A stretch of DNA of 64,000 nucleotides. Source: Botryllus schlosseri. Its lineage: Eukaryota. Position numbers and translations under genes: made by a program. The stretch is from assembly GCA_051294905.1 (NCBI GenBank), contig CM119372.1, forward strand, positions 18,230,001 to 18,294,000, written 5' to 3'. The notes beneath the pieces were generated by a model. That model was not told the DNA's origin. It saw nothing but the letters and a program-made list of their open reading frames with translations, and made no database searches. This document shows positions 1-38,649 of this stretch, one piece after another; the first letter of the stretch is position 1, and every line of letters starts with the position of its first letter.

Positions 1-3000
1 ACATGACTACCAACTTCCCCACAGTCCCGTTTCGATATTATACACACATTGATTTGAAACAAGTAATGAAACATCACAACTCTATTCACGGTCTGGCTTT
101 CCGTTTGTCAAAGAGATATTTTTACATCTTACCATACTCAAAAGAATTATTCACAACATTACCAATTGTTAAAAATCTAGTTTTCAATTACTTGATTATA
201 TCACTGCAACTCATGAATTTGAATTAATTCATCCTGGTTGTATTCGTATGCTCGGTCTTTTTTTATTCGATTGTAAAGGTTGTTACTATTCTAAAGACAA
301 AGTATTTACTAATCGGTGCATATACGTTTTGACTTGGACATATTATATTTTGAGTATACGAGATTTGAATGTCTGAACAATAACTGAGAAATAATTTATC
401 ACAATTAAATCCGTATATTACAGCGTAATAGATATTTGAATGTCAGCAACTCGGTAAGATCATAGTTACTACCACATTACCTAATTTATCCGACCAACTC
501 GTCATGAGCATTCCCGAAATCAACACAAACATGACTACTGACTTGAGTTAACCACAAAACAGCATCGAGTTTTAAATCCACTTGTAGCTTACGGCTTATT
601 TGAATGCGGGTTATGTTTTGTTGTAATTGAGTGTACGGAAATAGTATTACATCTCGACATCTTACCATCTTACCATATTCAAAGAGTCAACCACGAAAAC
701 ATTGTCAAGTCAATCCGTTTGTAACTTACCCAACCAACTCAAACAGTATCAGTATGAAAACAACCAAGCATACACGAGTCCATACAATCGCTACAATCTA
801 AAATCCATAGCAAGTTCGGTTTCAGGCATATACCACCAACTCGTCTTTTTTGTTCAACTGTAAAAGTCGTTACTATACCACAAGACAAAGAGATTACTAT
901 GCGATATATTTTGTAAGACAAAAGTAATTACCACTCGGTGCAGGTGATTTGAGATTAACATAATATGTTTGAGTATACGAGATTTGAAAGTCTGATCAAC
1001 GTATAGTTGCGACTTCATTTCTTACAATCGAACGCTGGTGTTATATCGAAAGTTACCATTCTGTAAACATAAGGATTGATACATTGATGTGCCATATGCA
1101 ATAGTTGATCATGGCTTGATTATTACATTATTTGCGTTAATTAGACCCGGCGTTGTGGTAAAGGTTATTATGACAGCAACAAACTTTTCAGTACCGTTGT
1201 TATTAACATATTGAGTTGTAAAACTATGCGTGTCTGAAATGTTCTTGAATGGAAAATTATTCCACCTTGGTACATATCACCCTGCGTATCGCAGATATCA
1301 GAAAATATTTTACAAATGTAATTGTCTCCACTAACCAAGACTAAAGATGAAACAACAATTTCCTTTGTTAAACAATAACCGGTACAATACTTTATCATCG
1401 TAATCAGCAGTGAGAATTGAAACACTTTCGCACATTACCCGATGTCAAGATATCACACTAGGTGAATTGACATACCGCCGCTTGATTAATACCTAATCCA
1501 TTCGCACCATTTCACATACTTTGATCATTACAAAAGTAAATTGGAATATGTTTGCTAGATGCATTCAATTCAGTTAGAAATGTCTGGTACACAACAATCG
1601 TAATATCAAGGAAGTACTTGCTACGCTGTAATCCACTTAACGTGTTTTGTATTGTTGTTCATTTGTAGTATTGATTGTTTTCGAACCCCCAAATAATAAT
1701 TCCCGACATGAAACCAAACCGCTGAAAGTCGTTACCATCACAACGAAACAATTTGTACGATGTTTGTCAAATGCATCCTATAGTTAGGTGTACTAGAATT
1801 ATTTGTGTAACACATACGCCGACAATGCAATCGAAAATTTTTCCGTTGTCATTCGCTAAAATAAATGTCATCACAATACTCATCAAGCTGTCATCTGTAA
1901 ATCAAGATTACATCCAACTTTTAACGGTATCGTTTAACTACCGGGTTGCATCAGTTTGCTATTTTTGTCATTTAGTGACTGCTGAACATACCAAACGATA
2001 CACATTCACTTACGAAATACTGTGTTGGTCGTAATTTCCATCACCGTGATAATCGAAGTACATTTGTTTCGAGTTCATAACAACCGACTACTTTTCTATG
2101 ACCCGATATATTTTTGACAAGTTATGCTTAGAAGATTGGTGCATCTCGCGAAAAATAATATACCACTCATATTGATACTGCTACTCCATCGACCGGTATT
2201 TTCAAACGAGTCGATTTTCAACCGAGCAAAATTTATTACTCGAGTTGTCCTGCTTACTATATTTAAATGTAAACTCACCCGTCTTTCAACAACAAACAAT
2301 GATAAAAAGTACACAAGCAAACACAACAAGTTTTACTTTTGTAGGACACTAATTATTATTCCACGCATCTCATTTCATACTAAGTGTATATGAAAGATGT
2401 TCATGGTACACGAATATATTCGCTCATGCTACGAACATACGCAATGATTGGTGACGCTTTCACACTATTTCGATTTAGTGTAACAAAAACAACAACAACA
2501 ATTTTCACTCTCTTGACTTATGAAAAACAACAGACGAACCTTCATTCAATATTTTGTTTTTTTGTCAACTAGTTACTTTTTCATGAGACCCCCACTACTC
2601 TTACAAAAGTACGAAAGATATTTACATCACACAAAGTAATCAACTTTACTCGATATTCCCATGCTACGAACCTGTACAATGATTGGTGACGCTTTCAAAC
2701 TGTTTCGTTACCTCAAGACCTTTATTGTCTGAATGGTTGTTCATGTATCTTATTAATCAAATAGTTCAACACACAACAATAGTACGAACAGAAACATCAG
2801 AGTTGTTTACACAAAAGTTTGTATGCGTACAGTATGCGAATACCATGTGTAAGTCGAGCGCAATTGTGGTATCCATCCAAGTTTAGTTAACACAAATTCA
2901 TTACAACGGAGCCGCGTAAACTTTCGTGAAAGAAAAGCATACCCACTTCCCGAGGGTTCTGTCAATGTCATAACAATAAACCAGATACTCCAACAACAGA

Positions 3001-5008
3001 GTACATATGTTTTCTAGTCACGATCCTTACATCTTTCACATAGATCAATCTACTTTGCTACCGAAAAGTGCTGAGTCATCATATGGTTGTCCTCACAACT
3101 AACACATACTATCATACAAAATGGTCGTTATAGTTTGCACACCAACGGTACATCGTACAAGTAACAAGTCTCGAGAATCCAGTTATTCAAAAAAAAACGT
3201 GAAAGTATTTCTACACCAAGTCGTTATGTTGACGAAAGCGTATATTGTAATATCATGATCGATTTGCATTCGTTGGCCACAAACTGTCACTACTCTAACT
3301 AATTCTTTTTCACTCAAACACAAACGCATACTTGTCACCATTCGTTTTCATAAAGCACGAGTTCAAGAAACTTACTTACTACGACATGAATTTTTATTTT
3401 TATGTTGTGTAAATAGGTAATAATTAATTCAAGTAACACTATATCAACATCATCGACTTGTGCTAATAGATTTACATGCGGTCTTGTGGTTTTCGTCGGG
3501 ACATACAGCACGAACTAACTGTAGACTCCTCTCTGTTGTACAACTACTCGGTAATCGAAATGCATTAACATGTAAACAACGATCTTGTTTCGTCACACCA
3601 AAAATATGTTCACTGTCGCGATACTCCGCACAAGACGTGCATAGCCTTTTCACACTCGTAATAGTATACCAACGTCAAGCGATAACGTTTAACAAGACCA
3701 ACGACACTGAACCCACGACGTTTACCTATGTAAAATTACCACTTTCACTTGCCAGTCCATCGTTTACCTGACTAAACATATTATTTTCCTTTGGAGATCT
3801 GACGTTTACCCAGAGTAAGAAACCATTTTCACTTGTAAATATATTTTTTCCTTGGCTAACAAACCTTTTTTCACTTGGAAATATATTTTTTCTCTGGTTA
3901 ACAAACCTTTTTCACTTGGAAATATATTTTTTCTCTGGTTAACAAACCTTTTTCACTTGGAAATATATTTTTTCTCTGGTTAACAAACCTTTTTCACTTG
4001 GAAATATATTTTTCCCTGGGTAACAAACCTTTTTTCCCTGAGCAACAAACCATTCTCACTTGGTGGTCTGTCGTTTAGCCGAGTAAAAATATCATTTTCC
4101 TTTGGAGATCCGGCGTTTACCCAGTGTAACAATACATTTTCACCTGGAAAAATACTTTTACCTAGAGTAACTAATCATTTTCTCCTGGGTAACAATCCCT
4201 TTTCGTCTGGAAACTATCATTTAACTGAGTACCAATACCGTTTTCACTTGGAAATACATTTTTTCCCTGGGTAACAATACCATTTTCGTTTTGAAAACTG
4301 ACAACCACACCGGTCAATTTGATATTTTTGTATATTGTTACAACAAACAGTGACGGAAATATACACAGACAACCAGTTTCAGAGTATACCCCATCGGTCG
4401 TATCACATCAATATCATCGGTTAACCACATACAATATGCTCTTGTACACCGAAACGCATGTTTTGGAAACTTGGACAATAGACCTCGATAGTTCTGTGAT
4501 GTCCGGGTTCGTGCTTTGGATTTTCCAGAGTCAAAATGTCTGAATAAAACACCTCCTCGATGACGGTTGGTATGTGGATAACGATGTTCGGAAAACGGTT
4601 GGATTTATGTCACCCATCGCGATAACAATTCCTGGTCGAGTTTTCCTCCGGCATGTTTGCTATATTGTGTCTTTATTGGTCAATGTATGTCTCGACATTC
4701 AGTTTGAAATCGGAAATGATAAAGTATGTAACCGGATCCGGATATCAACTCTGAATCGATAAACCAATGAACAATATTCAAAGTAAACATGTCACACCCT
4801 GTGTTTCCACGAAAAAATACCATCCAGACATACGTCGCGCTTGTTTGCCCACACCAGTATACGCGCAAATGGAGGTGTGTGACATTGCATGCAATGCGTT
4901 GGTATACAAACATCGATCCACAGACATTATCATAGTCGATAGTTTTGATGTAGATCGAATGTCACCAGATAACAATACCAATAAGCCACATTGCAATGAC
5001 TCTGAGTC
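1..5008. repeat. Left arm of giant inverted repeat (continues beyond window start)
   Basis: Reverse complement of 5940-10946. Mirrored ORFs have constant coordinate sums of 10947/10948. Differences noticed by eye: 743/10204, 4967/5981, and A9 (3189-3197) vs T8 (7751-7758). Confidence 0.98.
3715..4292. repeat. Tandem array of ~20-21-bp subunits with a core of near-perfect 41-bp units (mirrored at ~6656-7233)
   Basis: Unit GGTTAACAAACCTTTTTCACTTGGAAATATATTTTTTCTCT is repeated about 4 times at ~3855-4035, with degenerate TTTTCACTTGG/TTTACCCAG variants on either side. Confidence 0.9.
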
Positions 5009-5656
5009 AATCTGAAGCATGACATACAGACACACAAACACGGAACCGTAACATGGGTTATTCGCACGGCGGAGAAAGTGAACTGTACAGTACATACCAA
5101 TATTGTGATCACAGTCAAATGTGCGAACCGTGTACAATCATATACCCAGGTTTTTGCTGGATATGTACAATTCCGATAAATCGATACATTTCTTTTCCCT
5201 GGACATCAATAATACAATCGCCATTCAAATGCATCACTCGAATTTGAGGTTCGTCCGGTGTAAAATCCATATCAAATAACACCAAAGTGTGCCTTCCGTG
5301 TTTTATTATTTCCACCGACGCTTCTTGTCTGTGTCGTAACACTGTGGTGCGGGGAGTTGAAAAACGATGGATTGTGAAACGGATTGACATGACCAACCGA
5401 AACGACGTCAATAGCCTTGTGGTGATGACAGTGTCAAAATGCTACCGATATGACGAGACCAACCCGATCTCTTGTAGCGATGACCGTTTCGAAATGTCGC
5501 CGGACGAATTAGACCCTTACGATGATGTGTTTTATGATTGTGTGTGAAATCGCGAGGTAGTGTTCTATTGTGGTGTACGATTGCAGTCTTCACAGAAACA
5601 TACCTTATTGGATCACAGTATCAGTCCGAGATTTTCAGAATCACTGTTCGCGATAT

Positions 5657-6181
5657 TTATCTGGAGTCGTTATGTGGGAGTAGCGACATCCATGCATCGT
5701 GACTGAAAGACTGATCGCAATCATTTCGAGCACCGTACTTCGATAGTTCACATTGGTCAAACGCTGTAGCCTCAGCGGAAAACTTCGGTCTCGACAACAC
5801 GCTGGATATTGACCGATGTATCCAATTGATCTGGGTGGTCTGTCTGGAGATAGGGTCATGACTATCTTGTAATGTTACAACGCGATAAAACCATCGACTA
5901 AACCAGTGAACGGTGTCGAAATATCGATGTAATAGCGCAGACTCAGAGTCATTGCAATGTGGCTTATTGGTATTGTTATCGGGTGACATTCGATCTACAT
6001 CAAAACTATCGACTATGATAATGTCTGTGGATCGATGTTTGTATACCAACGCATTGCATGCAATGTCACACACCTCCATTTGCGCGTATACTGGTGTGGG
6101 CAAACAAGCGCGACGTATGTCTGGATGGTATTTTTTCGTGGAAACACAGGGTGTGACATGTTTACTTTGAATATTGTTCAT
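5657..6181 (-). CDS. Hypothetical 174-aa ORF starting in the right arm and running into the spacer
   Basis: ATG-initiated and the longest ORF in the palindrome. No recognisable domain. The mirrored left-arm copy (4767-5015) stops just after the junction. Confidence 0.25.
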   Translation of the reverse strand: MNNIQSKHVTPCVSTKKYHPDIRRACLPTPVYAQMEVCDIACNALVYKHRSTDIIIVDSFDVDRMSPDNNTNKPHCNDSESALLHRYFDTVHWFSRWFYRVVTLQDSHDPISRQTTQINWIHRSISSVLSRPKFSAEATAFDQCELSKYGARNDCDQSFSHDAWMSLLPHNDSR

Positions 6182-9100
6182 TGGTTTATCGATTCAGAGT
6201 TGATATCCGGATCCGGTTACATACTTTATCATTTCCGATTTCAAACTGAATGTCGAGACATACATTGACCAATAAAGACACAATATAGCAAACATGCCGG
6301 AGGAAAACTCGACCAGGAATTGTTATCGCGATGGGTGACATAAATCCAACCGTTTTCCGAACATCGTTATCCACATACCAACCGTCATCGAGGAGGTGTT
6401 TTATTCAGACATTTTGACTCTGGAAAATCCAAAGCACGAACCCGGACATCACAGAACTATCGAGGTCTATTGTCCAAGTTTCCAAAACATGCGTTTCGGT
6501 GTACAAGAGCATATTGTATGTGGTTAACCGATGATATTGATGTGATACGACCGATGGGGTATACTCTGAAACTGGTTGTCTGTGTATATTTCCGTCACTG
6601 TTTGTTGTAACAATATACAAAAATATCAAATTGACCGGTGTGGTTGTCAGTTTTCAAAACGAAAATGGTATTGTTACCCAGGGAAAAAATGTATTTCCAA
6701 GTGAAAACGGTATTGGTACTCAGTTAAATGATAGTTTCCAGACGAAAAGGGATTGTTACCCAGGAGAAAATGATTAGTTACTCTAGGTAAAAGTATTTTT
6801 CCAGGTGAAAATGTATTGTTACACTGGGTAAACGCCGGATCTCCAAAGGAAAATGATATTTTTACTCGGCTAAACGACAGACCACCAAGTGAGAATGGTT
6901 TGTTGCTCAGGGAAAAAAGGTTTGTTACCCAGGGAAAAATATATTTCCAAGTGAAAAAGGTTTGTTAACCAGAGAAAAAATATATTTCCAAGTGAAAAAG
7001 GTTTGTTAACCAGAGAAAAAATATATTTCCAAGTGAAAAAGGTTTGTTAACCAGAGAAAAAATATATTTCCAAGTGAAAAAAGGTTTGTTAGCCAAGGAA
7101 AAAATATATTTACAAGTGAAAATGGTTTCTTACTCTGGGTAAACGTCAGATCTCCAAAGGAAAATAATATGTTTAGTCAGGTAAACGATGGACTGGCAAG
7201 TGAAAGTGGTAATTTTACATAGGTAAACGTCGTGGGTTCAGTGTCGTTGGTCTTGTTAAACGTTATCGCTTGACGTTGGTATACTATTACGAGTGTGAAA
7301 AGGCTATGCACGTCTTGTGCGGAGTATCGCGACAGTGAACATATTTTTGGTGTGACGAAACAAGATCGTTGTTTACATGTTAATGCATTTCGATTACCGA
7401 GTAGTTGTACAACAGAGAGGAGTCTACAGTTAGTTCGTGCTGTATGTCCCGACGAAAACCACAAGACCGCATGTAAATCTATTAGCACAAGTCGATGATG
7501 TTGATATAGTGTTACTTGAATTAATTATTACCTATTTACACAACATAAAAATAAAAATTCATGTCGTAGTAAGTAAGTTTCTTGAACTCGTGCTTTATGA
7601 AAACGAATGGTGACAAGTATGCGTTTGTGTTTGAGTGAAAAAGAATTAGTTAGAGTAGTGACAGTTTGTGGCCAACGAATGCAAATCGATCATGATATTA
7701 CAATATACGCTTTCGTCAACATAACGACTTGGTGTAGAAATACTTTCACGTTTTTTTTGAATAACTGGATTCTCGAGACTTGTTACTTGTACGATGTACC
7801 GTTGGTGTGCAAACTATAACGACCATTTTGTATGATAGTATGTGTTAGTTGTGAGGACAACCATATGATGACTCAGCACTTTTCGGTAGCAAAGTAGATT
7901 GATCTATGTGAAAGATGTAAGGATCGTGACTAGAAAACATATGTACTCTGTTGTTGGAGTATCTGGTTTATTGTTATGACATTGACAGAACCCTCGGGAA
8001 GTGGGTATGCTTTTCTTTCACGAAAGTTTACGCGGCTCCGTTGTAATGAATTTGTGTTAACTAAACTTGGATGGATACCACAATTGCGCTCGACTTACAC
8101 ATGGTATTCGCATACTGTACGCATACAAACTTTTGTGTAAACAACTCTGATGTTTCTGTTCGTACTATTGTTGTGTGTTGAACTATTTGATTAATAAGAT
8201 ACATGAACAACCATTCAGACAATAAAGGTCTTGAGGTAACGAAACAGTTTGAAAGCGTCACCAATCATTGTACAGGTTCGTAGCATGGGAATATCGAGTA
8301 AAGTTGATTACTTTGTGTGATGTAAATATCTTTCGTACTTTTGTAAGAGTAGTGGGGGTCTCATGAAAAAGTAACTAGTTGACAAAAAAACAAAATATTG
8401 AATGAAGGTTCGTCTGTTGTTTTTCATAAGTCAAGAGAGTGAAAATTGTTGTTGTTGTTTTTGTTACACTAAATCGAAATAGTGTGAAAGCGTCACCAAT
8501 CATTGCGTATGTTCGTAGCATGAGCGAATATATTCGTGTACCATGAACATCTTTCATATACACTTAGTATGAAATGAGATGCGTGGAATAATAATTAGTG
8601 TCCTACAAAAGTAAAACTTGTTGTGTTTGCTTGTGTACTTTTTATCATTGTTTGTTGTTGAAAGACGGGTGAGTTTACATTTAAATATAGTAAGCAGGAC
8701 AACTCGAGTAATAAATTTTGCTCGGTTGAAAATCGACTCGTTTGAAAATACCGGTCGATGGAGTAGCAGTATCAATATGAGTGGTATATTATTTTTCGCG
8801 AGATGCACCAATCTTCTAAGCATAACTTGTCAAAAATATATCGGGTCATAGAAAAGTAGTCGGTTGTTATGAACTCGAAACAAATGTACTTCGATTATCA
8901 CGGTGATGGAAATTACGACCAACACAGTATTTCGTAAGTGAATGTGTATCGTTTGGTATGTTCAGCAGTCACTAAATGACAAAAATAGCAAACTGATGCA
9001 ACCCGGTAGTTAAACGATACCGTTAAAAGTTGGATGTAATCTTGATTTACAGATGACAGCTTGATGAGTATTGTGATGACATTTATTTTAGCGAATGACA

Positions 9101-10946
9101 ACGGAAAAATTTTCGATTGCATTGTCGGCGTATGTGTTACACAAATAATTCTAGTACACCTAACTATAGGATGCATTTGACAAACATCGTACAAATTGTT
9201 TCGTTGTGATGGTAACGACTTTCAGCGGTTTGGTTTCATGTCGGGAATTATTATTTGGGGGTTCGAAAACAATCAATACTACAAATGAACAACAATACAA
9301 AACACGTTAAGTGGATTACAGCGTAGCAAGTACTTCCTTGATATTACGATTGTTGTGTACCAGACATTTCTAACTGAATTGAATGCATCTAGCAAACATA
9401 TTCCAATTTACTTTTGTAATGATCAAAGTATGTGAAATGGTGCGAATGGATTAGGTATTAATCAAGCGGCGGTATGTCAATTCACCTAGTGTGATATCTT
9501 GACATCGGGTAATGTGCGAAAGTGTTTCAATTCTCACTGCTGATTACGATGATAAAGTATTGTACCGGTTATTGTTTAACAAAGGAAATTGTTGTTTCAT
9601 CTTTAGTCTTGGTTAGTGGAGACAATTACATTTGTAAAATATTTTCTGATATCTGCGATACGCAGGGTGATATGTACCAAGGTGGAATAATTTTCCATTC
9701 AAGAACATTTCAGACACGCATAGTTTTACAACTCAATATGTTAATAACAACGGTACTGAAAAGTTTGTTGCTGTCATAATAACCTTTACCACAACGCCGG
9801 GTCTAATTAACGCAAATAATGTAATAATCAAGCCATGATCAACTATTGCATATGGCACATCAATGTATCAATCCTTATGTTTACAGAATGGTAACTTTCG
9901 ATATAACACCAGCGTTCGATTGTAAGAAATGAAGTCGCAACTATACGTTGATCAGACTTTCAAATCTCGTATACTCAAACATATTATGTTAATCTCAAAT
10001 CACCTGCACCGAGTGGTAATTACTTTTGTCTTACAAAATATATCGCATAGTAATCTCTTTGTCTTGTGGTATAGTAACGACTTTTACAGTTGAACAAAAA
10101 AGACGAGTTGGTGGTATATGCCTGAAACCGAACTTGCTATGGATTTTAGATTGTAGCGATTGTATGGACTCGTGTATGCTTGGTTGTTTTCATACTGATA
10201 CTGCTTGAGTTGGTTGGGTAAGTTACAAACGGATTGACTTGACAATGTTTTCGTGGTTGACTCTTTGAATATGGTAAGATGGTAAGATGTCGAGATGTAA
10301 TACTATTTCCGTACACTCAATTACAACAAAACATAACCCGCATTCAAATAAGCCGTAAGCTACAAGTGGATTTAAAACTCGATGCTGTTTTGTGGTTAAC
10401 TCAAGTCAGTAGTCATGTTTGTGTTGATTTCGGGAATGCTCATGACGAGTTGGTCGGATAAATTAGGTAATGTGGTAGTAACTATGATCTTACCGAGTTG
10501 CTGACATTCAAATATCTATTACGCTGTAATATACGGATTTAATTGTGATAAATTATTTCTCAGTTATTGTTCAGACATTCAAATCTCGTATACTCAAAAT
10601 ATAATATGTCCAAGTCAAAACGTATATGCACCGATTAGTAAATACTTTGTCTTTAGAATAGTAACAACCTTTACAATCGAATAAAAAAAGACCGAGCATA
10701 CGAATACAACCAGGATGAATTAATTCAAATTCATGAGTTGCAGTGATATAATCAAGTAATTGAAAACTAGATTTTTAACAATTGGTAATGTTGTGAATAA
10801 TTCTTTTGAGTATGGTAAGATGTAAAAATATCTCTTTGACAAACGGAAAGCCAGACCGTGAATAGAGTTGTGATGTTTCATTACTTGTTTCAAATCAATG
10901 TGTGTATAATATCGAAACGGGACTGTGGGGAAGTTGGTAGTCATGT
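5940..10946. repeat. Right arm of giant inverted repeat
   Basis: Mirror of 1-5008. Pairing stops at 5008/5940, leaving a unique 931-bp spacer (5009-5939). Confidence 0.98.
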
Positions 10947-11969
10947 TTGTCAATCCTATTTCAATTCACACTATGTCAAAGTCCAAATATTTCATTTTGG
11001 ATTATCTGGATTTAGCTTTAGTACACTCCGCGAATGGATTCCGACACCGTACTATAACGTTTTTGATGATAAGGACTCGAGGATTTTCAATCAACAATAC
11101 TGGAATTTTTTGATAATGTTAGAGCTGGCAAATGATTAGTTGCGTGATTTTGTTAAGAGTTTGATTTCGTGTTGATAAAGACAATAACTGTATAATACAC
11201 ATACTTGTGATTCTTGATTCTTGTAGAGTTATAGTTGTATTGATTCTATAAGTGCGAAAACAGCGGCGCGGAATGTGCGAATAATTCGATGCGGCTGAAA
11301 GTCGGCGTCAGTAATATTCGGTTACGGTCGAATCAAAAGATTTCTCAAAATAATTAGAATTGTACCGAATTAACACATTCAGATACGAATCAACTTGGTT
11401 TGTGCAGTAAGTTTCATTTCAAGTTGACAAATTGACACATTACTTGTATATTCACATGATTCTTATTATACAACTAAAGTCAACCACGTTCCGAAGTGTC
11501 AAAACATATAGCAAGCACCAGAAAGTGTCAAATTGTTGGTTTTCGAATCACCGTCTGCGACGGCTCTGTGACAAACTAATTACCGAAATATTACCTTGTG
11601 AGCGATCGGTATGTCTTTAACACCAAGTCACTAAAATGGTTATGCCCGAGACATTATCTTGTCAGCGATCGCGGGGTTTTGCAAACTATTTCACACATTT
11701 TTGAAGTGTTAGTTTGTGAACGCGGTTATTTGTTGATCGCTTTTCGTGTCGCTGCTGAATACTGAATACTCCTGAATGTAATAGTGCTGACTGGATTAGT
11801 GTAATAATCGATAGTAGCACGCGGCTGGCCGTGAAACAATTCCACACACAGGTCATTCGAAATATAGGTCGCACTGCTTAATCCTCACAACAAGCCACGT
11901 TTCCGTTTGTGCGGTTATTGTTGGTGACTATTCAACACCACGCGAGAGATGGTTGAAAGTGCGAATCAC

Positions 11970-12262
11970 GACCGCACCCATAAGAACACATGGCGAGTCA
12001 CCACAGATCCCGTAAGAATACATGACAGACACATTTATCGTCGTTAGCATGTCGCCGCCGTCTATACCCGAAAAGGCAACCATGTCGCCGCACCCATAAG
12101 ACACAGTGGCACCATGCGACCGCAGCCTATACCCGAAAAGGTAACCATGCCACCCCCGCCATAAGACACAATGGCACCATGCCACCCCCGCCATAAGACA
12201 TAAGGGTCACCATGCCACCCCCGGTTTTCTCGGCACCATGCCACCCCGCCCATAAGAACCCC
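11970..12262. repeat. GC-rich subterminal tandem repeats (GGCACCATGCCACCCCCGCCATAAGACAC-like)
   Basis: Several degenerate copies of CCATGCCACCCCCGCCATAAGA and CCCATAAGA lie immediately before the ACTACT terminus. Confidence 0.85.
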
Positions 12263-12608
12263 AGGCAAATCACGAGCGATCTACTATACTACTCACAGGA
12301 TCGGAGTTAGCGGTAGAGCTGGTCATGGAGGATGATGAGTTCGATAATACAGGGAGCGTAATTGCACATCGTTAAGTCATGTTCATGTCCTACCGATAAG
12401 ATTGTTTATCAGCCTTATGCCGGTGCGCACCACGGAGCTTTATAAACACCCCACATCCAGAGGTTTCCAACCTTTTATGGTCGCGACTCGCGACTCCATC
12501 TCCAATTTGAAAATGTACTGTGGCCCGGATCAAAATGTGACGAGCTGATTACCTAAATAAGTCAGCACCTTTGCCCAGACTGACTCACGGGCTATTTTGG
12601 AAGCTGAT

Positions 12609-13825
12609 TAGGGGATGGTGTGAACCTCTGAAAGGTTCGGATTCGTGTGAACGCGAACCTTTTTGAAAGGTTCTGTGTGAACGCGAACTTGAACGTCATA
12701 TTGCTAATTCCAACCTTACATTTCTCTGAAGTGATATATTAATGTACACGATACCTGGCGAAGACTCGGGCCACAAAATGTGGGGTTATCATACGGGAGG
12801 AGGAGAAGGATAAGTTCTCATTTTTCAGGTTTTTGAAAATGTCCTCCGAGGACGCCTAAATGTCCTCCTTTTAAAGTGTGTAAATCGGGAGTCGAACGAT
12901 AGTGATGACCTTTTTATCAGTCAACTCACCCAATTCCACAGCAAAAATAGCGAAATCGGCTGTTTTCAGTCTGGATCAACTGACTTTTCTGATTTGGTAA
13001 ATGTGTCCTCCTTTCCCTATTCCAAAATATGGTAACCCTAACATAATGCCACAATGCTGAAGTACATTTTGACTTCTGAAACGTCGCCAAATGTATCAAC
13101 TGGGGCAATCAAATGATATAACAATCCCACAAAATCAATATCTTCCGTCGCTTTGCCAACAATTTCGACGAGGACTTGCAAAGGAATATAAGCTGACGCC
13201 TTAACGGTCTCCGTCTAGGCCAGACCGGACAATGTGTTCGGCGTCTGAGCTGAGTGTTGCTAAGTTGATATTGAGCAGAGGGTAAAACGGGTTTCTATAC
13301 TTGCTACAGATATTACCCCTTTAACAAGTTATACAGCAGTAGCCAACACCCCAATCGCACGGTTTTGGTTTTTATGATACAATCGAGATGGGCCCCGTAC
13401 GCTTGCTAGATTTTTTACATCAGACAACGTTATCAATTTCATTGATTGGTTGAATATGCATCATTCGTTGACTACCTACATGTAGCGTACTTCGCTCTTG
13501 ATGTTGTGTGATTGCGGGTCAAGCTCACAGCCGAAAGTCACTAAATATTCCCAAACGGAAAGATGGATATTTCGAGCAAACTTCTGTAACAAAGCAAGTA
13601 AAATTTTTGAGATTTTCAAGGTGCCAGCGCCATGTATAGAGTGGCCCGCAGTTAAAATGCAATAAATTTCAACCAAAGATATTATAATGACGTGAAAATT
13701 GTAATATATGAAAAAGGTTCATAGTGCAGAACCTTTACCGAGGTTCGTTCGTGAACGTGAACCTCTAAATTTCCGAGGTTCACACACAGAACGCGAACGT
13801 GAACCTCACGTTCACACCATCCCTA
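12609..13825. mobile_element. hAT-type MITE (TIR TAGGG(G)ATGGTGTGAAC; internal GTGAACGCGAAC motifs)
   Basis: GGGATGGTGTGAAC...GTTCACACCATCCCTA, with CTGATTA on both flanks. A related fragment lies at ~44270-44340. Confidence 0.75.
12781..13040. mobile_element. Small MITE nested in the 12609-13825 MITE
   Basis: TGGGGTTATCATA...TATGGTAACCCTA; 8-bp TSD ACAAAATG/ACATAATG (7/8 match). Confidence 0.7.
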
Positions 13826-14414
13826 CTGATTACGTTCAACATATTCGCAAACCCCAGAATAAAGGCGAGCGACCCCCCCCGTTTTGAACCACTATCTTTG
13901 AATAAAGCATTTAAACGGCCTTAACGATCTCTAGGAATATACCGTTCTCCTATAATTGCGATTGCAATTAGGCTTATTCCAGTAAATGAAAGTTTTTATA
14001 TTTTATGGCAGTTTTTGCGAGGGTGGTAGTCTCCATATTAAAATCAATAAATGTGATAGTAAATCGCGCGCAGCGTGAAGAAAAATATCATGCATCAGCA
14101 TAAATATTCCCTAAACATATTGTTTTCATGCTGATTTACGAAAAATTTATGAGCCTACGTCAAAATTCCGGACATTTGGCATATTTTAGAAATTCCTCCC
14201 GGATGCTAGTTTCACCAGTGAAATTCCGGAAGTATGGCAACCCTATTCTAGGGCTGCCAAGTGTCCAGCACCGACTCCGTTAAATGGACACTTGGATGAC
14301 CCATGACAATGTATGCTCTATTCTTGTCTGAGCTGGCTGCCGTGAGGACGCAGAAATAAAGCTGTCTGAAAAACTATTGTGCATCTCTTGACATCGGCTA
14401 TATTAGGTCTTCCA

Positions 14415-15135
14415 CATATACATTGGGAGAAAATTGGGTACGAGAAGCTCAAACACGCATGTTCTATTAGTAGACCCAGAATCACCGGGTCAAATTTTTA
14501 TAACAATGCGGTGATGTGATAGATTCGACGCAGAGAAAACATAATTACAGATGGACTAACGCTGGTCGAGTTGTTTTATTGGGGGTTGTCGGAGTGAGGC
14601 AAGCAATATTCGCCCCTCTAGAGACATCAGTGGTGATATTGAAAATGAAAATGGAATATATGGCATTTGAGCAGCTATATAAATACAGCCCACCATTGAT
14701 TGAATCGAATTACTTCCCTGACATATTCAGTTGGTCATTAAATGCGACTATTGTCACATTCGATAAAGCCAGCCCTAACCCTGTGATCCCAGAAAATTAT
14801 TACCATTATATCCCATTCAGAATATACGTTGTGCCTGATTTTGCAATTCCTGTCAGGACGAAAGATGACGGGCGGATGGATAACATTGAACATAATGCGC
14901 GAAAGTCAAGCGATTGCTGTTTGTATCTTAGTCTGTCTTACGTGGACTCCTTTAGGTGATTTTATCATGTGAAATTGTTTCGCGGATTCAAAGATAGTAT
15001 AACACATCATCAAGTATGATGTAATTGCCGCAATTTCCCGATACGCAGTCACTGCAGTCGTTATGGATAAAGTGAGAGGAGGTTCACTAACAAATTCTAC
15101 TTAGCGATGCGCACCATTCTAAGCACCGACATAGG
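14415..15135. repeat. Dispersed ~0.7-kb repeat of unknown class (second copy ~50970-51680)
   Basis: Collinear diverged match from ATTGGGAGAAAATTGGGTAC to GCGATGCGCAC..TTCTAAGCACCGAC. It explains the similar ORFs 14516-14959 and 51138-51438. Confidence 0.85.
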
Positions 15136-16655
15136 TGATCTACCCGTCCTGGCGACAGGTGAGGCACTGCATCACTTGCCTCCCCTGACCGCACGTCATG
15201 GTACCTTCCATGACGTGATCTGCACAAACTCAAGAGTAGGCCTCTGATTGCCGTATGCCATGTGCATTGTGCACTGTGCAGTGAAGTTGCAGTCGTATGC
15301 AGTAATCAATTAAATTACTATGCCCGTCTGATGACACCCACTGAAGCAACAAGTGGCGTTTATATACGGACACATACTGTTGTATTATAAGCAACAGGGG
15401 TGGCCTTATGCCTTCACAGATCCCCAGCTCCACTTTCGCAGCAATGTTCAGGATAACTAAAATCTGTACAAAAAGACTCTGTATTATGTTGATTTATCAA
15501 GTAATTTCAGCTTTTTCCATTTTGAAAACTTAAGTGAAATGTTTTGCAACAAAACATGGTTATAATATGTCGTGTTCGTCAAATCATTTGGCGTGCCATG
15601 AAAAATCATCTTGCGTGCCACAAATGCAACGCGTGCCGGGGTTTGCCGAACCCTGGTGTAGTGGCAGACATACAGTATATCAGCCCTCTGAGCCTGCGAC
15701 AGGCTGAAAAAAAATGACGTCAAATTGACTTTCTGCTTTCTTTCGTTAATCAATCATCATATTTTCGTAATAACTGTTCGATTAGCGCGAGGCACGAGGA
15801 TAGTAATAAATACCATCATTACTGACTCACATTTGCAAGTTACTGTAACGCAAATTTTTACCCCTTGAAGGGTTATTCAAGTATGAACCGCAAAAGGTAT
15901 AATTTTGGGACGACAAGGTGCCAGAGCTATCTGTTAATATGTATGTAATACTTGTTGAAATTTATTGCAAAAAATTCTGCGATAGTTTTTACATATTGTT
16001 GTTGTGTTGGGTACTGTGTAGCCAATAAGCGAGACGAGCAGAAAATAGGGCTTTATCATGAGAATTCATGATAAGATTTGTCCGACTGGTTTTTCTGGAA
16101 AACATGGTCGAAGACCGCTGGGATGAACTAATGTAGGGGTGTGCAACTAGTGAGTTCAGGCCTATAAGACTCATTCATTTCGAGGTCAACCCCTACTGCG
16201 TCGGCCGTCGGGGACATGTAGATATAAAGTTTTGGCCAATAAACCGTTGATAAAATGCTGTGCCCAAAACATAAGAGAAGACAAAACCTCGGCCGAAAAT
16301 GACCGATGCTGGATGACCAAACCTTTCGATGTGGATATGGTCCGTTGTCGGCATCGAATAGTCCCGTTTTTGCAATCACAGTAGCAGGGCTGTGGAGTAG
16401 GAGTCAGAGTTGGGCTACTTATCGCCTAAAGAAGTCGGAGTCGTGAAACCTATGATAGTTGGAGGCGGAGTCGGAGTCGTGGAAAGAATACTGACTGGAG
16501 TCGTTGTCGGAGTTTGCAAAAATGACCCGACTCCGAGTCCGACTCGAACTTCTTCATTTTGAAAACAATTGCTTGCTAAGGTATCTTCATATTGCTAATA
16601 ATAATTAAAATAGGATTTTTATGTACCATCAATCACTGGTATTAGTAACGATATA

Positions 16656-17839
16656 CAGGGGTGGCCAACCATTTTGACCAAAGGGCCACATGAGATTTAC
16701 GAACAATTGCGCGAGCCACTTGAATGTTGATGACCTTTTTTAGTCTTCCGGTAGGAGCGAACCGGATTAGGTAACGGTGAAAACAATTCTTATAATAATA
16801 CGCATCAAAATCAATAGCAATTATGACATGATGACCCGGTGATCAACCACGCTATAGTAGAGCGCAGCGCGAAAATTTTTCAAAGTTATTGAATGAATTC
16901 GGTCAATAATAATGTTACTTGCAAATATTATGGGTCGCCTCATCTGCATACCCCTGGACTCATTTGACAAGGACAGGAGTATTCGGCGCTTGGACTTACA
17001 CATATCGAAGATATCGGCTAATATGCGAAATATTGTACTTACTGGTCATATACGATGGTCTACGAAAAATGCGGCTAGTCCCCTGGCTACGCCTATGCGT
17101 GGGAACTGATATTTTAGTCGTCAAAACCCCAAATTTCACGGACAGGCTAATCAAATTTTGGTTATTTGGTTTTGGTAATTTATTTTCTGGTAATATAAAT
17201 AATTTCTAGAATAACCCCCCGAGCCACTCAAAACCTTATCGCGGCCCACGGGTTGGCCGCAGGGTTGTAACCAAGTCACAAGTCAAACTCACTTTTATAG
17301 TTTTGACTCGAGTCAAGTCGAGTCAATTTCAATTCACCACCGAGTCAAGTCCCGAGTTCAAGTCAGCAATCAGAGGGTCGAGTTCGAGTCATGGTATTAT
17401 GACTCGAGTCCGAGTCTAAGTCATTGTGTTGACTGCTCAGTTTCCAGTTAAAGTCTTGTTAAACCCACTTTTTATAACTCTGTTTGGTGATATCGAATGT
17501 TTCGCATCAATTCCCTCACTATTAGCAGTTTCTGGTCGCATTTTCAAGTACAGGTACCAATAGACGAAATTCCGATAGTGTGGTTACTTTACTATTTTAC
17601 GAAATTACAATGAAATGTCGGTCTTGGCCGTCTGAGTCTCGAGTCATATAACTTGGTTCGAGTGATGCGCAGTGACTCAGGTGCAAGTCGAGTCAATACA
17701 CAGATTGACTCGAGTCGAGTCATTTCCAGATTTTCAGAAAATGACTCGAGTCAAGTCGAGTCTTCCGAAAATCGTGACTCGAGTCGGACTCGAGTCCAGT
17801 CATAACTCGAGTCATTACAACCCTGGTTGGCCGCCCCTG
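16656..17839. mobile_element. hAT-type MITE (CAGGGGTGGCCAACC...GGTTGGCCGCCCCTG) with its right TIR interrupted
   Basis: 15-bp TIR pair; no matching TSD seen. Confidence 0.65.
17260..17825. mobile_element. hAT-type MITE rich in GACTCGAGTC palindromes
   Basis: TIR CAGGGTTGTAA/TTACAACCCTG; perfect 8-bp TSD GTTGGCCG (17252-17259, 17826-17833). Confidence 0.92.
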
Positions 17840-19088: not shown

Positions 19089-20063
19089 TCATACGGCAAC
19101 ATTACTATTGTCAACGGTTAAAGCGTTTTTACGCAGACGGAAACACACACGGCACACTAAGCTTCTGCAATCACCAATTGTATAGATAATAACGAGTTGA
19201 TTAATAAATATATCAAAGTTTGTAAACGTATGTGCCAACAGCACCACATCCGTTAGCCTCCTGGGGATGATGAAAAATATCATATCGGTTATTACAATAA
19301 CAATCGATCCAATCAAAGATCGCTTTATCACCCGGGAAGTGCTCGAATAGTCATCTTGTGGCTCCGCTGTCGACGAGTCTCGCTGTTGCGCCCTTAATTC
19401 TGATTTTACCTTTGCCATTGGGTATATGAACAAAATGAGTAACATCACTTGTGCAGTCACTACAATCGCGAGTAGAACAAATTTTCTTGACGCATTCCAA
19501 TCTCGATACACGTCAGACTGGTTTTGAAATGGTATATATTGACAACCAGTAGGACCGGCACGGTACGTTTCTGGAAACCAGAAGCCAACGAGAAGTGCAA
19601 TGAATGAAACTACAATCCAAACGATGGAATATTTACTTATCATTTGCACCCATCTTGTTGTTAAAGTCTTCACGATGTACGCGGAATGGATTAGTCTTTG
19701 GCGGCACCACAGAAATGTGTAGATGCCCAACATACTGGTTCCAATCAAGCAATGTCCAACATCTGTTATCAGCTCACAGTCTCGTAATGCACGTGGATTG
19801 TATGACACGTGAAAAAGATAAATATACGGAATTAGCCGAAACCATCCCACGCCAATCGCTGCAAAACAAGCCATGAATATCTTTCCCTTTTCGCAGGAGA
19901 AATCCCATCGCCCACGCCTATATCCCAGGACTGCCATGAACGCTAAAATTCCGGTGGTGACAGCGAGAAGGCAGTACGTAGCTACTCCGCAGAATACCAC
20001 CTGCAAGTTCCATGCTCGAGCAGTCTCATTAAAATAACTATCACAGCTGGTAACATGCTCCAT
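19089..20063 (-). CDS. Intronless seven-transmembrane GPCR-like protein (324 aa from ATG 20063)
   Basis: About 7 hydrophobic segments, an N-terminal NET sequon, extracellular-loop Cys residues and a C-terminal Cys cluster. The FLWCRQR motif resembles, from recall, uncharacterised ascidian 7TM proteins. A pyrimidine-rich CAG acceptor lies just upstream at 20076-20078. Confidence 0.8.
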   Translation of the reverse strand: MEHVTSCDSYFNETARAWNLQVVFCGVATYCLLAVTTGILAFMAVLGYRRGRWDFSCEKGKIFMACFAAIGVGWFRLIPYIYLFHVSYNPRALRDCELITDVGHCLIGTSMLGIYTFLWCRQRLIHSAYIVKTLTTRWVQMISKYSIVWIVVSFIALLVGFWFPETYRAGPTGCQYIPFQNQSDVYRDWNASRKFVLLAIVVTAQVMLLILFIYPMAKVKSELRAQQRDSSTAEPQDDYSSTSRVIKRSLIGSIVIVITDMIFFIIPRRLTDVVLLAHTFTNFDIFINQLVIIYTIGDCRSLVCRVCFRLRKNALTVDNSNVAV

Positions 20064-20953
20064 CTCCAAAAATACCTGCGAACAACGAGACAACGAACGA
20101 ATTGTTCTTGAAATATTTTATCAGTCGGAACCACGTATATGTATTATATTCTCTAACCAATGCTAAATAAATGACGTCCTGTTTCGGTTGATGTTTCGGA
20201 CTAATGTCACGGTCGAATCCGGATGCTTTGCCACATTAGTGCAACGAGAATGACTATGGCATTATTACCACGATGATGCTTAGTCGATCGCTGTAAAATT
20301 GAGTAATCATAATCTTTTAACACTTGTAGATAAATTTTCGGCCCATAAATGCACGTACTTATTTCCACCCTGTATTGTTGAACTGCTCAGAATATATTCT
20401 GATCTCGCGTACAATTATCTTGGGACTCAAATGTCATTTGTGGTTTAATCAGGAATGACTTGTTAGTTATTGCTACTGCTGAAATAACGGTAATGTTCGA
20501 GAGAATACGGACGTATAGCATGTTACAGCTTGTATGGCTAATTGAACATACTGTGATTAGCACGGACCTCATCAATTACCTCGTGATCGGTCATTTCATC
20601 CTGGGTTGTTGTTGTTGTTGTTGTTGTTGTATAGTATTATGAAATACAGTGATCGGTTACTATGGCCTTTTACACCAAGTCTAAATTGTCTGGAAATTCG
20701 TTGCGGTTACAATTCTCTACCGACGAGGAGAACAAATTGGATCACAGGCAGTAGAATTCGGAGATAAGTTTGTGATCCAAAAACGAATATAGTTCGCAAT
20801 GAATCAAGTAGTGCTCGACCGTCTCGTCGATATCCCACGCCTCACATCCGATTCTGCGCAGTTGTCAATAGGGTCGGCAGTCGAACTCTGAGTTTAGTGT
20901 GTACTTTTTCGTTCTCGGAATTAGGTGTCAATGGCAGGGACTTGTTGCTAATG

Positions 20954-27799: not shown

Positions 27800-30700
27800 C
27801 CGCAAATAGGCTAATCCCCATCATGATGCAATTCCGTCACTCTTAGTATCTTCTTTCCAAATCATATACATATCCTCCTGAAACACCTCACTATGTTTCT
27901 CGCTTACATCACCCATATTCGAACTAATAAAATCAAGGTGAAGGTGCAGGTAATGCGGTTTTAAGGACATGTCCCACTCTATTTTTTCATACATCTCGAT
28001 CATATATATGGTTTACCAGAGGTTTATATTCATTGCTTCGTTTATTTCAAAGAAAATTTTCAACTACATCTCGAAATGCTTTGAATGCTCCTGCTTTTCT
28101 CGCAGTCATTTCATTGTCAAGTGCTTTACATAAGATTGCCAACATTCACGCACAAGCAAAGAGAACCTGCCACAGAAATATACCGTGAAAATCGTTCATG
28201 CCCTTTTCTCGATGAAAAACATCGTTCCCTAGTTTTAACCTTGGAGTCAGAATTTCCGCATTTGATTTAGTGAGTCCCAACTAAATCATCAAGTTCGTAT
28301 TGGTTCGGAATGTGTCGTTCTGGATTTATCTCGGTACGGGAGATGTTGAAGTCGTCATCGTCGGAGTCATTTTCTGTATCTTTAAGCCCTGTCGAGTGTC
28401 GAGTCTTCTGGAGCTTTTTGCTTGGTAGTCTTGGCAGTGAAAACTTACTGCAATACGGAACAGGTGCTTAAGAGGAGATGGCATGGAAGGATATGCAGTG
28501 CCAAGTCATTTTTTAGTTAATCTGAACCTTGGAATGTCATCCATACAGAAATAACAGTCTTCTATAAGGTTTCGAATTTCCCTTCAGATTCTTTAATAGC
28601 AAATGACATTGATGCCGATCTCCCCTTAGGGCAATTCCCTGCACAGACAACCGATGTTCCCACCACTACCTCTTCAAATCTCTTGAAATTTGGTACACGC
28701 ACAGATGAGCTAATTCCAAACAGGATGAACTTTATTTCATAAAAATTGGACTTTGGGGTCAAAAGTTACGTCACTTTGAAAATTGACAATTTTCTGCTCA
28801 TTTCGGGTCTGCACTTTCAGGTTTTATCAATGCAATATTCAAGAAGGTGTAGCTAAATGTTAGACGACAGTTGAGATACGGCACTGGGATTTATTTGAAG
28901 CTTGTCTGATCGTCTATATTTCCAAGTGAAATTTAATGCCCTGTAGGTTAGGGTCAAAGGTTAAATTTAGGGGGAATTTGGTCAATGGTCTAAAATCAGT
29001 CAGGCGTTACACGATTTAGACTGCGGATTGCTCAAAAACATATTAAAATATTTTGGAAAATAGGATCTTAAATGAAAGTTTGCTTCAAGGAGACTTCGTT
29101 CATAGCTGTTTGATTTTGGTTTTTAGACTGCAAAGTGATGAAATTGCAGTTTCAAGAGCACACTTCATTTGCACGTGGAAATGCAGTAGTAGTAGGGTGT
29201 GTTCGGACATCGATTCTGGGGTGCGTGTGGGCATCATGTCTGGGGTGTGTTCCGACATCATGTCTTGGGTCTGTTAGGACTGTGTTGCCATTCGAACATC
29301 GTGTCTGGGGTGAGTTCGGACTGTTTTGTCCCTCGGATATCGTGTCCGAGGGGGGTGTTCAGACACCATGCCTGGCGTGTGTTAGGACTGTGTTGTCACT
29401 CTGACATAGTATCTGGGATATGTTTGTGTTGCGCCAGACATGACTCAGACCTGATATCTGCGCACTAATTTTATCCGGACATGCTCCGGAGCTGATACCT
29501 GCCCACTAAATACCCCCAGGCATGGTCCAAACCGGATATATGCGCGCTTAATGGACACAGATATGCGTCAGACGTGATACCCGCATCCTAAACGACGTGT
29601 TTTTGCTGATATCTGCGATAGCTGGGTATATCCACAGTAGTGGTAGCTGAGTTTATCCACATTCACAGTAGAGATAGCTGAGTACATCCAAAGCTTTCAC
29701 TACTGTGGTTATACTCAGCTATCACTGCTGTAGATATACCCAGCTATCGCAGATACCAGCAAAAAACGCAAATATAGAGGACATATATAGGCCAAATGTC
29801 GTTTAGGACGTGGGTATCACGTTTGACGCATGTATGTGTCCATTAAGCCCGCAAATATCAGGTCCGGACTATGCCTGGGGGTATTTGGTGCGCAGGTATC
29901 AGCTACGACACATGTCCAGATTATAATAGTGGGCAGATATCAGGTCTGAGGCATGTTTGGCGTATCACAAACATATCCCAGACACGATGTCCGAGTAGCA
30001 AACACAGTCCGGACACACCCCAGGCATGATGTTCGAACACCTTCCAGACACGATGTCCGAATGACAACACAGTCCGAGCTCACCCCAGACACGATGTTCG
30101 CCTTGCAAAACAGTCCGACCATACCCGAGACATAATATCTGGGGTGAGCTCGGACTGTGTTGTCATTCGGACATCGTGTCTGGAAGGTGTTCGGACATCA
30201 TGCCTGCGGTGTGTCCGGACTGTGTTGCTACTCGGACATCGTGTCTGGGATATGTTTGTGATACGCCAAACATGCCTCAGACCTGATATCTGCCCACTAT
30301 TTTAATCTGGACATGTGTCGTAACTGATACCTGCGCACCAAATACTCCCAGGCATATAGTCTCGACCTGATATCTGCGGGCTTAATGGACAGTGGACACA
30401 TACATGCGTCAGACGTGTTACCCACGTCCTAAACGACATTTGGCCTATATACGACCTCTATATTTGCGGTTTTTGCTGATATCTGCGATAGCTGGGTATA
30501 TCTACAGCAGTGATAGCTGAGTATAACCACAGTAGTGATAGCTTTGGATGTACTCAGCTATCTCTACTGTGAATGTGGATATACTCAGCTACCACTACTG
30601 TGGATATACCCAGCTATCGCAGATATTAGCAAAAACGCGTCGTTTAGGACGCGGGTATCACGTCTGACGCATATCTGTGTCCATTAAGCGCGCATATATC

Positions 30701-32118
30701 CGGTTTGGACCATGTCTGGGGGTATTTAGTGGGCAGGTATCAGCTCCGGAGCATGTCCGGATAAAATTAGTGCGCAGATATCAGGTCTGAGTCATGTCTG
30801 GCGCAACACAAACATATCCCAGACACTATGTCAGAGTGACAGCACAGTCCTAACACACGCCAGGCATGATGTCTGAACACCCCCCTCAGACACGATGTCC
30901 GAGTGGCAACACAGTCCAAACACACCCCTGACATGATGTCCGAACACGCCCTAGACACGATGTCCGAATGGAAACACATTCCGAACACACCCTCGGCTCG
31001 ATGTCCAAGTTGCAAAACTGTCTGAACGCATCCAAGTATGATGTCCGAATACACCCCAGACACGATGTCCGAGGGGCAAAACAGTCCGAACTCACCCCAG
31101 ACACGATGTTCGAATGGCAACACAGTCCGAACACACCCAAGACATGATGTCGGGACTCACCCCAGACATGATGTTTACACACACCCCAGAATCGATGTCC
31201 GAACAAACCCTACTACTACTGCATTTCCACGTGCAAATGAAGTGTGCTCTTGAAACTGCAATTTCATCACTTTACAGTCTAAAAACCAAAATCAAACAGC
31301 TATGAACGAAGTCTCCTTGAAGCAACCTTTCATTTAAGATCCTATTTTCCAAAATATTTTAATATGTTTTGGAGCAATCCGCAGTCTAAATCGTGTAACG
31401 CCTGACTGATTTTAGACCATTGACCGAATTCCCCCTCAATTTAACCTTTGACCCTAACCTACAGGGCATTAAATTTCACTTGGAAATATGAACGATCAGA
31501 CAAGCTTCAAATATATCCAAGTTCCCTATCTCAACTGTCGTCTAACATCTAGCTACACCTTCTTGAATATTGCATTGATAAAACCTGAAAGTGCAGACCC
31601 GAAATGAGCAGAAAATTGTCAATTTTCAAAGTGACGTAACTTTTGACCCCAAAGTCCAATTTTCATGAAATAAAGTTCATCCTGTTTGGAATTAGCTCAT
31701 CTGTGCGTGTACCAAATTTCAGGAGATTTGAAGAGGTAGTGGTGGAAACATCGGTTGTCTGTGCAGGAAATTGCCCCTTAGCCAACCATCCGTATTTCAT
31801 CGACATGTTTCGAAGATTACATGAAATGCCCAGTTTTTATCTTTGTCTCCAATCTTCATGCCAAAGTAAAGTTCATAAGGATAAAAAACCTTACTTCTAT
31901 CTACAATTTGTACTTAACTTGTTTCAAACTGATATACAGACCATAGATATATCAAAAAACAGCCAGCAGGCAGAATACATTTGTGATGTTGATAATAATG
32001 ACGAGATTATACTCACTAGATCCACAATCAGTGCATTAACAGAACAAAACGATAAGGAATTTGAGATTGCTTGCTGTAGCCAATGCTGACTGAGACTGAA
32101 AAGGTGATTGTTACAGTG
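27800..32118 (-). pseudogene. Degraded CMC/Chapaev3-like transposase, split by the 28629-31776 insertion
   Basis: Frameshifted fragments in order: YELYFGMKIGDKDKNWAFH..WL (31880-31777), SMSFAI..EDCYFC..YPS..PVP (28624-28440), ELDDLV..AEILTPRLK (~28300-28235), VVENFL..MSLKPHYLHLHLDFISSNMGDVSEKHSEVF (~28070-27850). These match recalled family motifs WAPH, DCYFC and KIHFLHSHLDFF. A possible CACTG-type end lies at 32118. The superfamily assignment is from memory. Confidence 0.65.
28629..31776. mobile_element. Palindromic non-autonomous DNA transposon, Sola2-like
   Basis: GGGCAATT...AATTGCCC termini, a 4-bp TSD CTTA (28625-28628, 31777-31780) and long TIRs. Internal ~21-bp repeats TCGGACATCGTGTCTGGGGTG. 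GRG ends, a 4-bp TSD and long TIRs fit Sola2. Confidence 0.8.
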
Positions 32119-34530: not shown

Positions 34531-34809
34531 TATTTTGAGGCTGAAGCAATTTCAGCATTTCAAAATGCTTTACTTGACGTTCTTCCGAAATCTGAAAACA
34601 GATCACGGGCTGCAAAATACGACCTCGCACTCGCGGGCCGCGTGTTGGTAATCCCTGATCTAGACTTATACGTTTCGTCGATCTCAGTGGATACATAATA
34701 TAATATATCATAATATCATTCTGCCGTAATTAAAACCAACAGCTATTCTATATATACATTCTTGATAACCGTTTCTGGGTTCTGGTTTACCAAAGTCCCA
34801 ATCGCCAGC

Positions 34810-38515: not shown

Positions 38516-38649
38516 TCGAGTATGACAGGTCAGTAACAGTGGGCAGTAACAGCAAAGCAATTATGTTGCCCCTTTCTTGAAAAAGATGCTAATGTATCCA
38601 ATTCATAGCGTTCATCGTAGGGTTTGCAGGAACGCATAAAGCAGCAGAT

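Follow-up and report, generated by a model that had tools for sequence, protein, structure and literature searches.

A near-perfect palindrome in the Botryllus schlosseri genome, a probable non-autonomous, copy-back derivative of a Maverick/Polinton

What is a repeat that is built almost entirely of two mirror-image arms, ends in a Maverick/Polinton-type motif and holds no recognizable Maverick core gene? The question is raised by the first 12,293 nucleotides of a 64,000-nucleotide stretch of Botryllus schlosseri DNA (NCBI GenBank assembly GCA_051294905.1, contig CM119372.1, positions 18,230,001 to 18,294,000 of the forward strand), hereafter the window, which is animal DNA rich in repeats. 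The window opens inside one genuine copy of this repeat, and we consider it probable that the repeat represents a non-autonomous, copy-back derivative of a Maverick/Polinton. The observations behind this reading are a near-perfect inverted repeat around a 931-base-pair (bp) loop, a high-copy and diverse family whose arm-to-spacer depth lies near 2:1 or above in two of three runs, arms that share rare alleles, a Maverick-type motif where the family depth ends, and the lack of core genes.

Self-BLAST of the window aligned positions 1-5008 with 10946-5940 in inverted orientation, over 5008 columns and at 99.94% identity, which reproduces the values of an original prediction made from the sequence of this locus (arms of at least 5008 bp, three differences, a 931-bp spacer). 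The differences comprise two substitutions (743/10204 and 4967/5981) and a one-base homopolymer indel (3189/7759). The part inside the window has the plan of a copy-back molecule, with one end duplicated in inverted orientation around a short unique centre (Table 1). Beyond the visible mirror the sequence runs on for about 1.35 kb, as had been noticed, becoming increasingly rich in guanine and cytosine (GC) toward its end, where the GC-rich repeats lie. As for terminal inverted repeats (TIRs), 5,008 bp are mirrored, the outer 1,347 bp stand at arm-like depth in all three DNA runs, and their left counterpart is predicted. Were the mirror to extend to a matching left terminus, this would be found 1347 bases ahead of position 1; each arm would then measure about 6,355 bp, in an element 13,640 bp long and 93% palindrome; the original prediction had the overall size right and the offset, 1346, wrong by one base. 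A repeat like the 11-bp mini-palindrome at the inner arm ends itself ends at 41 of 5,919 positions. Short direct repeats of 28 and 32 bp, spaced by about 540-620 bp, occupy arm positions 115-999 (mirror 9948-10832), and a 48-bp direct repeat pair lies in the arm at 2425/2660; judged by sequence, these suggest old internal duplications.

Does the palindrome exist outside this assembly? Of the 24 sequencing runs listed, 20, from nine studies, contain part of 4400-12700, and four of the 24 were compared over 5000-17000. Summed contig depth, which differs from copy number and may be inflated by short contigs, by our reckoning up to about 30-fold, averaged 282,000 over the arm and 96,000 over the spacer in run X1, against 51 in the least repeated (unique) flank bin, and 9,600, 11,400 and 4, respectively, in run X4. 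Allowing for the full 30-fold would still leave copies on the order of a hundred or more. With the mixed bin 5802-6202 and all minisatellite bins excluded, arm/spacer depth was 2.95 in X1 and 2.21 in X12, where two arms per spacer predict 2. The ratio of extension to spacer was 2.39 in X1, 2.83 in X4 and 2.32 in X12; the earlier proposal that the unmirrored 1.35 kb belongs to the arm is thereby upheld in three of three DNA runs (2.3-2.8 times spacer depth). Depth then falls, in bin 12218-12618, to 0.32 (X1), 0.62 (X4) and 0.16 (X12) of the extension depth, so that the family ends within this bin, which holds position 12293; the exact base is below bin resolution. Of the 361,560 X1 contigs matched to 5000-17000 (a count that includes the flank repeats), at least 99% likeness was reached by 74,797, and 168,903 were less than 95% alike. 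We conclude that the arm, the spacer and the 1.35-kb extension form one high-copy, diverse family.

Further copies came from two database protein records, P0001 and P0002, which are 81% and 85% identical to the window in an arbitrary frame and colinear with it from position 4996, 13 bases inside the arm, into the spacer. As genes, in the plus-strand open reading frame (ORF) at 4954-5766, both were rejected: they place W opposite window TGA codons and are shifted in frame relative to each other, and such spurious gene calls serve here as independent copies. Because they cross the left arm/spacer junction, this junction is not peculiar to the assembly. These data bear directly on an artefact of assembly or library, whereby a fold-back chimeric read was incorporated or one arm was written twice. 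Such an error would suit the near-perfect identity of the arms, a window that begins inside the repeat and the lack of any long read or contig across both arms, but two clean substitutions separate the arms, the arm/spacer junction recurs in two independent records, the depth ratio is family-wide, and joining two random family copies would give a percent-level difference instead of 0.06%. We regard an artefact as very improbable.

Are the arms alike because the element is young, as the original prediction had it? Among the best supported 40 of 1,272 variants, 22 lie inside the mirrored arm, and at all 22 the window carries the identical letter on both arms. In X1, the window has the minority letter at 20 of these sites, and at ten its letter stays below 7% in both X1 and X4. 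At position 6493, 0.2% is left in X1 and none in X4 or X12. Most rare arm letters retain a remainder of thousands in X1 and hardly any in X4, a pattern consistent with the expansion of a subfamily in a single lineage. Since both arms carry family-rare letters, the arms are being homogenised: they are copied from each other, and within a lineage new letters reach the left and the right arm alike. Letters would not spread in this way if a linear molecule were copied faithfully, whereas they would by repair or refill of a folded stem, by fresh copy-back or by gene conversion. The near-identity of the arms itself stands, but because they are homogenised it cannot, taken alone, show that the element is young.

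Where the copying takes place is a separate matter. The spacer letters at 5171 and 5344 are near single-copy depth in X1 (remainders of 22 and 43, against 51 in the unique bin), and at the spacer rate about 21 arm-arm differences would be expected (range 2.6-78, from two counts by hand arithmetic), against two substitutions seen. There is a weak hint that homogenisation is newer than these two spacer changes, or is ongoing in place. The element could accordingly be an ordinary non-autonomous one whose arms were made or homogenised at the locus, by local fold-back duplication or palindrome gene conversion, and not in transposition. Local conversion would also produce near-private letters on both arms, such as that at 6493, and the shortfall from about 21 differences to two is in its favour. 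Against it, a palindromic plan of the whole family is indicated by depth ratios above 2, in two runs for arm/spacer and in three for extension/spacer, and the thousands that most rare arm letters keep in X1 denote a subfamily and not a single locus. We therefore attach a low probability to a purely local origin.

The putative right end of the element reads ...CTACTATACTACT, with 12293 as its last base, and CACAGG follows directly. Mavericks end in (AGT)2//(ACT)2 or (AG)3//(CT)3, and (ACT)2 is found at the right end, where the family depth drops. The Polinton-type terminus of the original prediction is supported at this putative right end. The terminal 18-mer had no match in viral contigs, and five metagenome-contig matches were dropped as chance, their likeness never reaching beyond 25 bases. 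Neither the terminal 21-mer nor an internal 26-mer matched prokaryote genomes; phage DNA gave no match, and positions 1-14000 held no Rfam family.

The motif could also stand at this place by chance, at the end of a giant foldback element that is mobilised by a transposase of the cut-and-paste kind (Mutator or P/Galileo type). Foldback elements are built with very long TIRs that contain internal tandem repeats, and in the known foldback transposons (Drosophila FB, Galileo, sea-urchin TU and the Ciona foldback) the arms are mostly tandem modules and the target duplications measure 7-11 bp. The palindrome shares with them its predicted very long TIRs, its internal tandem repeats (a 41-bp minisatellite and 32/33-bp subterminal repeats in the arms) and little or no coding sequence; furthermore, a second fold-back element is present in the window, at 28629-31776, and ACTACT is not rare there. 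It differs in that its arms are mostly unique sequence with a Maverick end motif, tandem repeats accounting for only about 0.75 kb of the 6.35 kb in each arm. A Pfam six-frame scan found no transposase remnant, cut-and-paste alone does not give both arms the same rare alleles, and the motif sits in the very bin where the family depth ends. A foldback origin appears improbable to us.

What does the element encode? The original prediction that no ORF exceeds 174 amino acids proved accurate: the longest stop-to-stop frame, at 5657-6193 on the minus strand, has 178, or 174 from the first methionine. ORF lengths were not above those of local dinucleotide shuffles (200 shuffles; p=0.055 for the longest, p=0.09 for the top five). 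Six-frame translations with X at stops, from which the minisatellite at 3753-4299 was left out, gave no Pfam match to polB or a retroviral-type integrase (1-3752, 4300-5942 and 10900-12302) and no PHROGs match (1-3752 and 4300-5942). No ATPase, adenain protease or major or minor capsid protein was found in ORF and six-frame scans, which heavily decayed, frameshifted remnants could escape. Because these core genes were looked for and none was found, the element is not an autonomous Maverick. Amino-acid composition scoring, which performed poorly on two of three control genes as well, gave no coding segment above shuffles, and none of the window proteins looked up by exact match was found (0 of 2 and 0 of 4). 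No RNA run was listed among those that contain part of the element; RNA of one run covered the element on both strands at a mean depth below 5 per bin, with no splice joint among those displayed, and gives no evidence either way on expression.

One small frame, on the minus strand of the spacer (5115-5390), is a candidate exception. Its alignment-free model was an eight-stranded, all-beta fold with a mean predicted local distance difference test score (pLDDT) of 60, against 34-49 for the other four models. The best structural Z, 5.4 (root-mean-square deviation 4.1, 65 aligned), was to HSP20/CS sandwiches and is below the tool's informative level; Foldseek gave no match at E 0.001, and no relative was found in Pfam, Atlas (recognition 1191) or viral contigs. 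Among the assignable changes, its wobble position accounts for 3 of 12 against P0001 and for 3 of 7 against P0002, records that are related to each other, where 8% is expected. Inside the frame P0002 departs from the window at 8 of 90 codons, outside it at 7 of 40; for P0001 the counts are 15 of 90 and 7 of 40, respectively, with no drop. Three of the four read variants displayed inside the frame fall, as we read the frame, on first or second codon positions. Going by its fold model, the frame may be a small gene. The element had been called gene-less; no core gene was found, but a 91-amino-acid ORF with a moderately confident fold makes the term uncertain, and "gene-poor" is safe where "gene-less" is not proven.

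A second frame, at 864-1331, was considered as a viral single-stranded-DNA-binding protein and rejected, all searches and the model being negative. By eye it bears a likeness to a gp2.5-type fold that no search supported. It had no match among 5.8 billion proteins or 1.84 billion representatives, its best hit to PDB sequences was unrelated (E 0.075), and its model reached a mean pLDDT of 38.7 with no fold match.

Table 1. Features of the palindromic element and their positions in the window.
Feature	Position	Strand	Basis or remark
Left arm, visible part	1..5008	+	Self-BLAST; upstream continuation of 1347 bp inferred
Broken frame with 4 in-frame stops	864..1331	+	Mirror 9616-10083, minus; by-eye likeness only
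41-bp minisatellite, degenerate copies	3738..4299	+	Left arm; mirror 6652-7210
11-bp mini-palindrome GACTC-T-GAGTC	4998..5008	.	Caps inner arm ends; mirror 5940-5950; candidate template-switch site
Spacer (loop), unique, 931 bp	5009..5939	.	41-44% GC; high-copy in species
Candidate 91-amino-acid all-beta ORF in spacer	5115..5390	-	Alignment-free fold model; codon comparison with P0001/P0002
Right arm, part with mirror in window	5940..10946	-	Self-BLAST
Right arm, outer part without mirror in window	10947..12293	-	Arm-like depth
GC-rich subterminal tandem repeats, 32/33/65-bp units	12048..12223	.	Candidate origin or protein-binding sites (inferred)
ACTACT = (ACT)2 Maverick/Polinton end motif, putative right terminus	12288..12293	+	Sequence; motif per PMC8097293
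CACAGG, predicted right copy of 6-bp target-site duplication	12294..12299	+	Prediction only

How does the element compare with known Mavericks/Polintons? Non-autonomous Polintons are known, Repbase entries among them (one bears the name Polinton-1N1), and, as proposed for the palindrome, combine helper dependence with Polinton ends. In the accessible portion of a survey of vertebrate Mavericks, the end motif is most often (AGT)2//(ACT)2, lengths run from 12,723 to 24,620 bp, TIRs from 46 to 1,447 bp, and duplications are of 6 bp (Barreat and Katzourakis 2021, PMC8097293). The palindrome resembles these elements, as far as that portion describes them, in the (ACT)2 at its visible end, in its predicted long TIRs and in its predicted 13.6 kb, which is within the 12.7-24.6 kb range; the original suggestion of near-autonomous Polinton size is consistent with this. 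It departs from them in that known TIRs flank seven to eight core genes, whereas here predicted TIRs of about 6,355 bp would form 93% of an element with no core gene found. Membership as a non-autonomous Maverick would be based, at the level of sequence, on the right-end motif and the size. TIRs of 584 bp and an apparent absence of non-autonomous copies are given for the anole Polinton in excerpts of PMC3014272, whereas the gene-poor form is highly abundant here. Butterfly polintons, according to the part available of bioRxiv 10.1101/2025.02.07.637071, have TIRs of about 2 kb and retained mobility after polB loss. They would share with our element the expansion of TIRs into the body and mobility without a polymerase; their TIRs are one-third as long, encode hexon and adenain, and most genes are kept. 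Partial texts give 744-bp TIRs for C. elegans Polintons (10.1101/2024.01.15.575659) and a capsid gene still present in the non-autonomous Polinton-N1A_NV (PMC11296320); general features of Mavericks/Polintons are covered by excerpts of PMC6431247, PMC3014272, PMC11296320 and PMC5499653. The large palindromes in the available text of the tunicate genome paper contain genes and are a different thing, and 46% of that genome is unclassified repeats (PMC12448946). No description of whole-element palindromic Mavericks was found in the literature seen in part, with subscription papers, Repbase reports and supplements outside its scope.

The copy-back origin that we favour would proceed as follows. 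During strand-displacement replication of linear Maverick-type DNA the polymerase would switch template, possibly at the 11-bp mini-palindrome, and copy back along one end, so that one end region would replace the other end together with all core genes. Both terminal origins could then be served in trans by the protein-primed polymerase and integrase of a helper. The displaced single strand would form a hairpin, its stem 6.35 kb and its loop 0.93 kb long, restoring a double-stranded origin, and repair or refill within the stem would copy arm from arm, so that the two arms stay identical although members of the family come to differ by several percent. Insertion of the product by the integrase would create a 6-bp duplication. 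By analogy with intact Mavericks, whose size range includes the predicted 13.6 kb, the length would allow packaging. A bolder version is a true satellite of an animal polintovirus, with a germline family of helper-sized hairpin genomes whose arms are rebuilt from one another in each protein-primed round, which are packaged in the helper capsid, outnumber and restrain the helper like defective interfering genomes, and carry a small beta-sandwich protein (HSP20/CS-like at best) in the loop; this we consider possible but unlikely.

Several precedents resemble steps of the copy-back model. Gene-free adenovirus genomes form between inverted repeats. The racket model of Polinton replication is said to go back to Kapitonov and Jurka in 2006. 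A figure legend in bioRxiv 10.64898/2026.07.28.741278 gives the same model. Integrated protein-primed linear fungal plasmids have long inverted repeats at their flanks, for which the excerpted source suggests panhandle intermediates (PMC1864894); by analogy they may be a precedent for protein-primed replicons that make long palindromes. Copy-back and snap-back defective viral genomes are treated in the accessible part of PMC6140465. Such genomes share with the palindrome the inverted duplication of one end around a short unique centre and, as proposed here, helper-dependent replication. They differ in being transient and non-integrated, while this is a germline, high-copy chromosomal family.

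Several observations weigh against the copy-back reading. Arm/spacer depth in X4 is 0.85 instead of 2, in a very uneven profile, and the 40 variants were selected for best support. Only the window shows the right spacer/arm junction, no strand-changing joint occurs at the spacer among the best 15 of 1,162 joints, and none of the matched pieces spans both arms. ACTACT occurs 23 times on the same strand of the window, and family and protein searches found no protein remnant tying the element to Polintons; the Maverick link here is one 6-bp motif plus size, and for this copy the decisive left end lies outside the window. No loose end at 12293 appears among the best 24 of 8,326 loose ends, so that dispersed insertion at the exact end was not seen among these.

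The rest of the window holds further repeats and genes. Just beyond the palindrome lies a 1.2-kb high-copy element (12612-13825) that has short terminal inverted repeats, is flanked by TA on either side and is inserted in another repeat (joint of 12603 to 13826; 283 and 492 loose ends in X1). The second fold-back element is older and about 3.15 kb long, its outer arms 94% alike and its inner part 93% self-complementary, with internal tandem repeats of 24 and 41 bp and a truncated relative of its end at 38647-39001. An open 875-amino-acid reverse transcriptase frame (Pfam RVT_1) occupies 45131-47758 on the minus strand; this locus has a 1,328-bp partial tandem duplicate at 99.6% (47617-49272), a 236-bp inverted piece and a decayed relative at 60518-61251. 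At 34714-36198 there is an intronless UNC-93-like gene (frame 34810-36195), whose best named relative is Ciona UNC-93A at 27%, and a decayed second copy, 81% alike, follows at 42910-43661. The intronless 342-amino-acid frame at 19089-20117 (minus strand) looks like a multi-pass membrane protein and has no Pfam match. Finally, a 139-bp unit is repeated four times at 57472-58025 (96% alike) and is related to a dispersed repeat at 17271-17773.

To our knowledge, the replication of animal Mavericks/Polintons, with its racket-shaped single strand and protein priming, is still a model without direct proof. Several-percent divergence within a family, combined with identical 6-kb arms in each copy, would be a natural record of a replication intermediate, and the way in which shared alleles are distributed along the arms, followed over many copies, can show where and how arm copies arm. 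The element would also mark the cis sequences sufficient for replication and integration, and copy-back defective viral genomes would have in it a chromosomal counterpart. An animal genome with many perfect palindromes of 13 kb would, in addition, be relevant to questions of genome stability and assembly quality.

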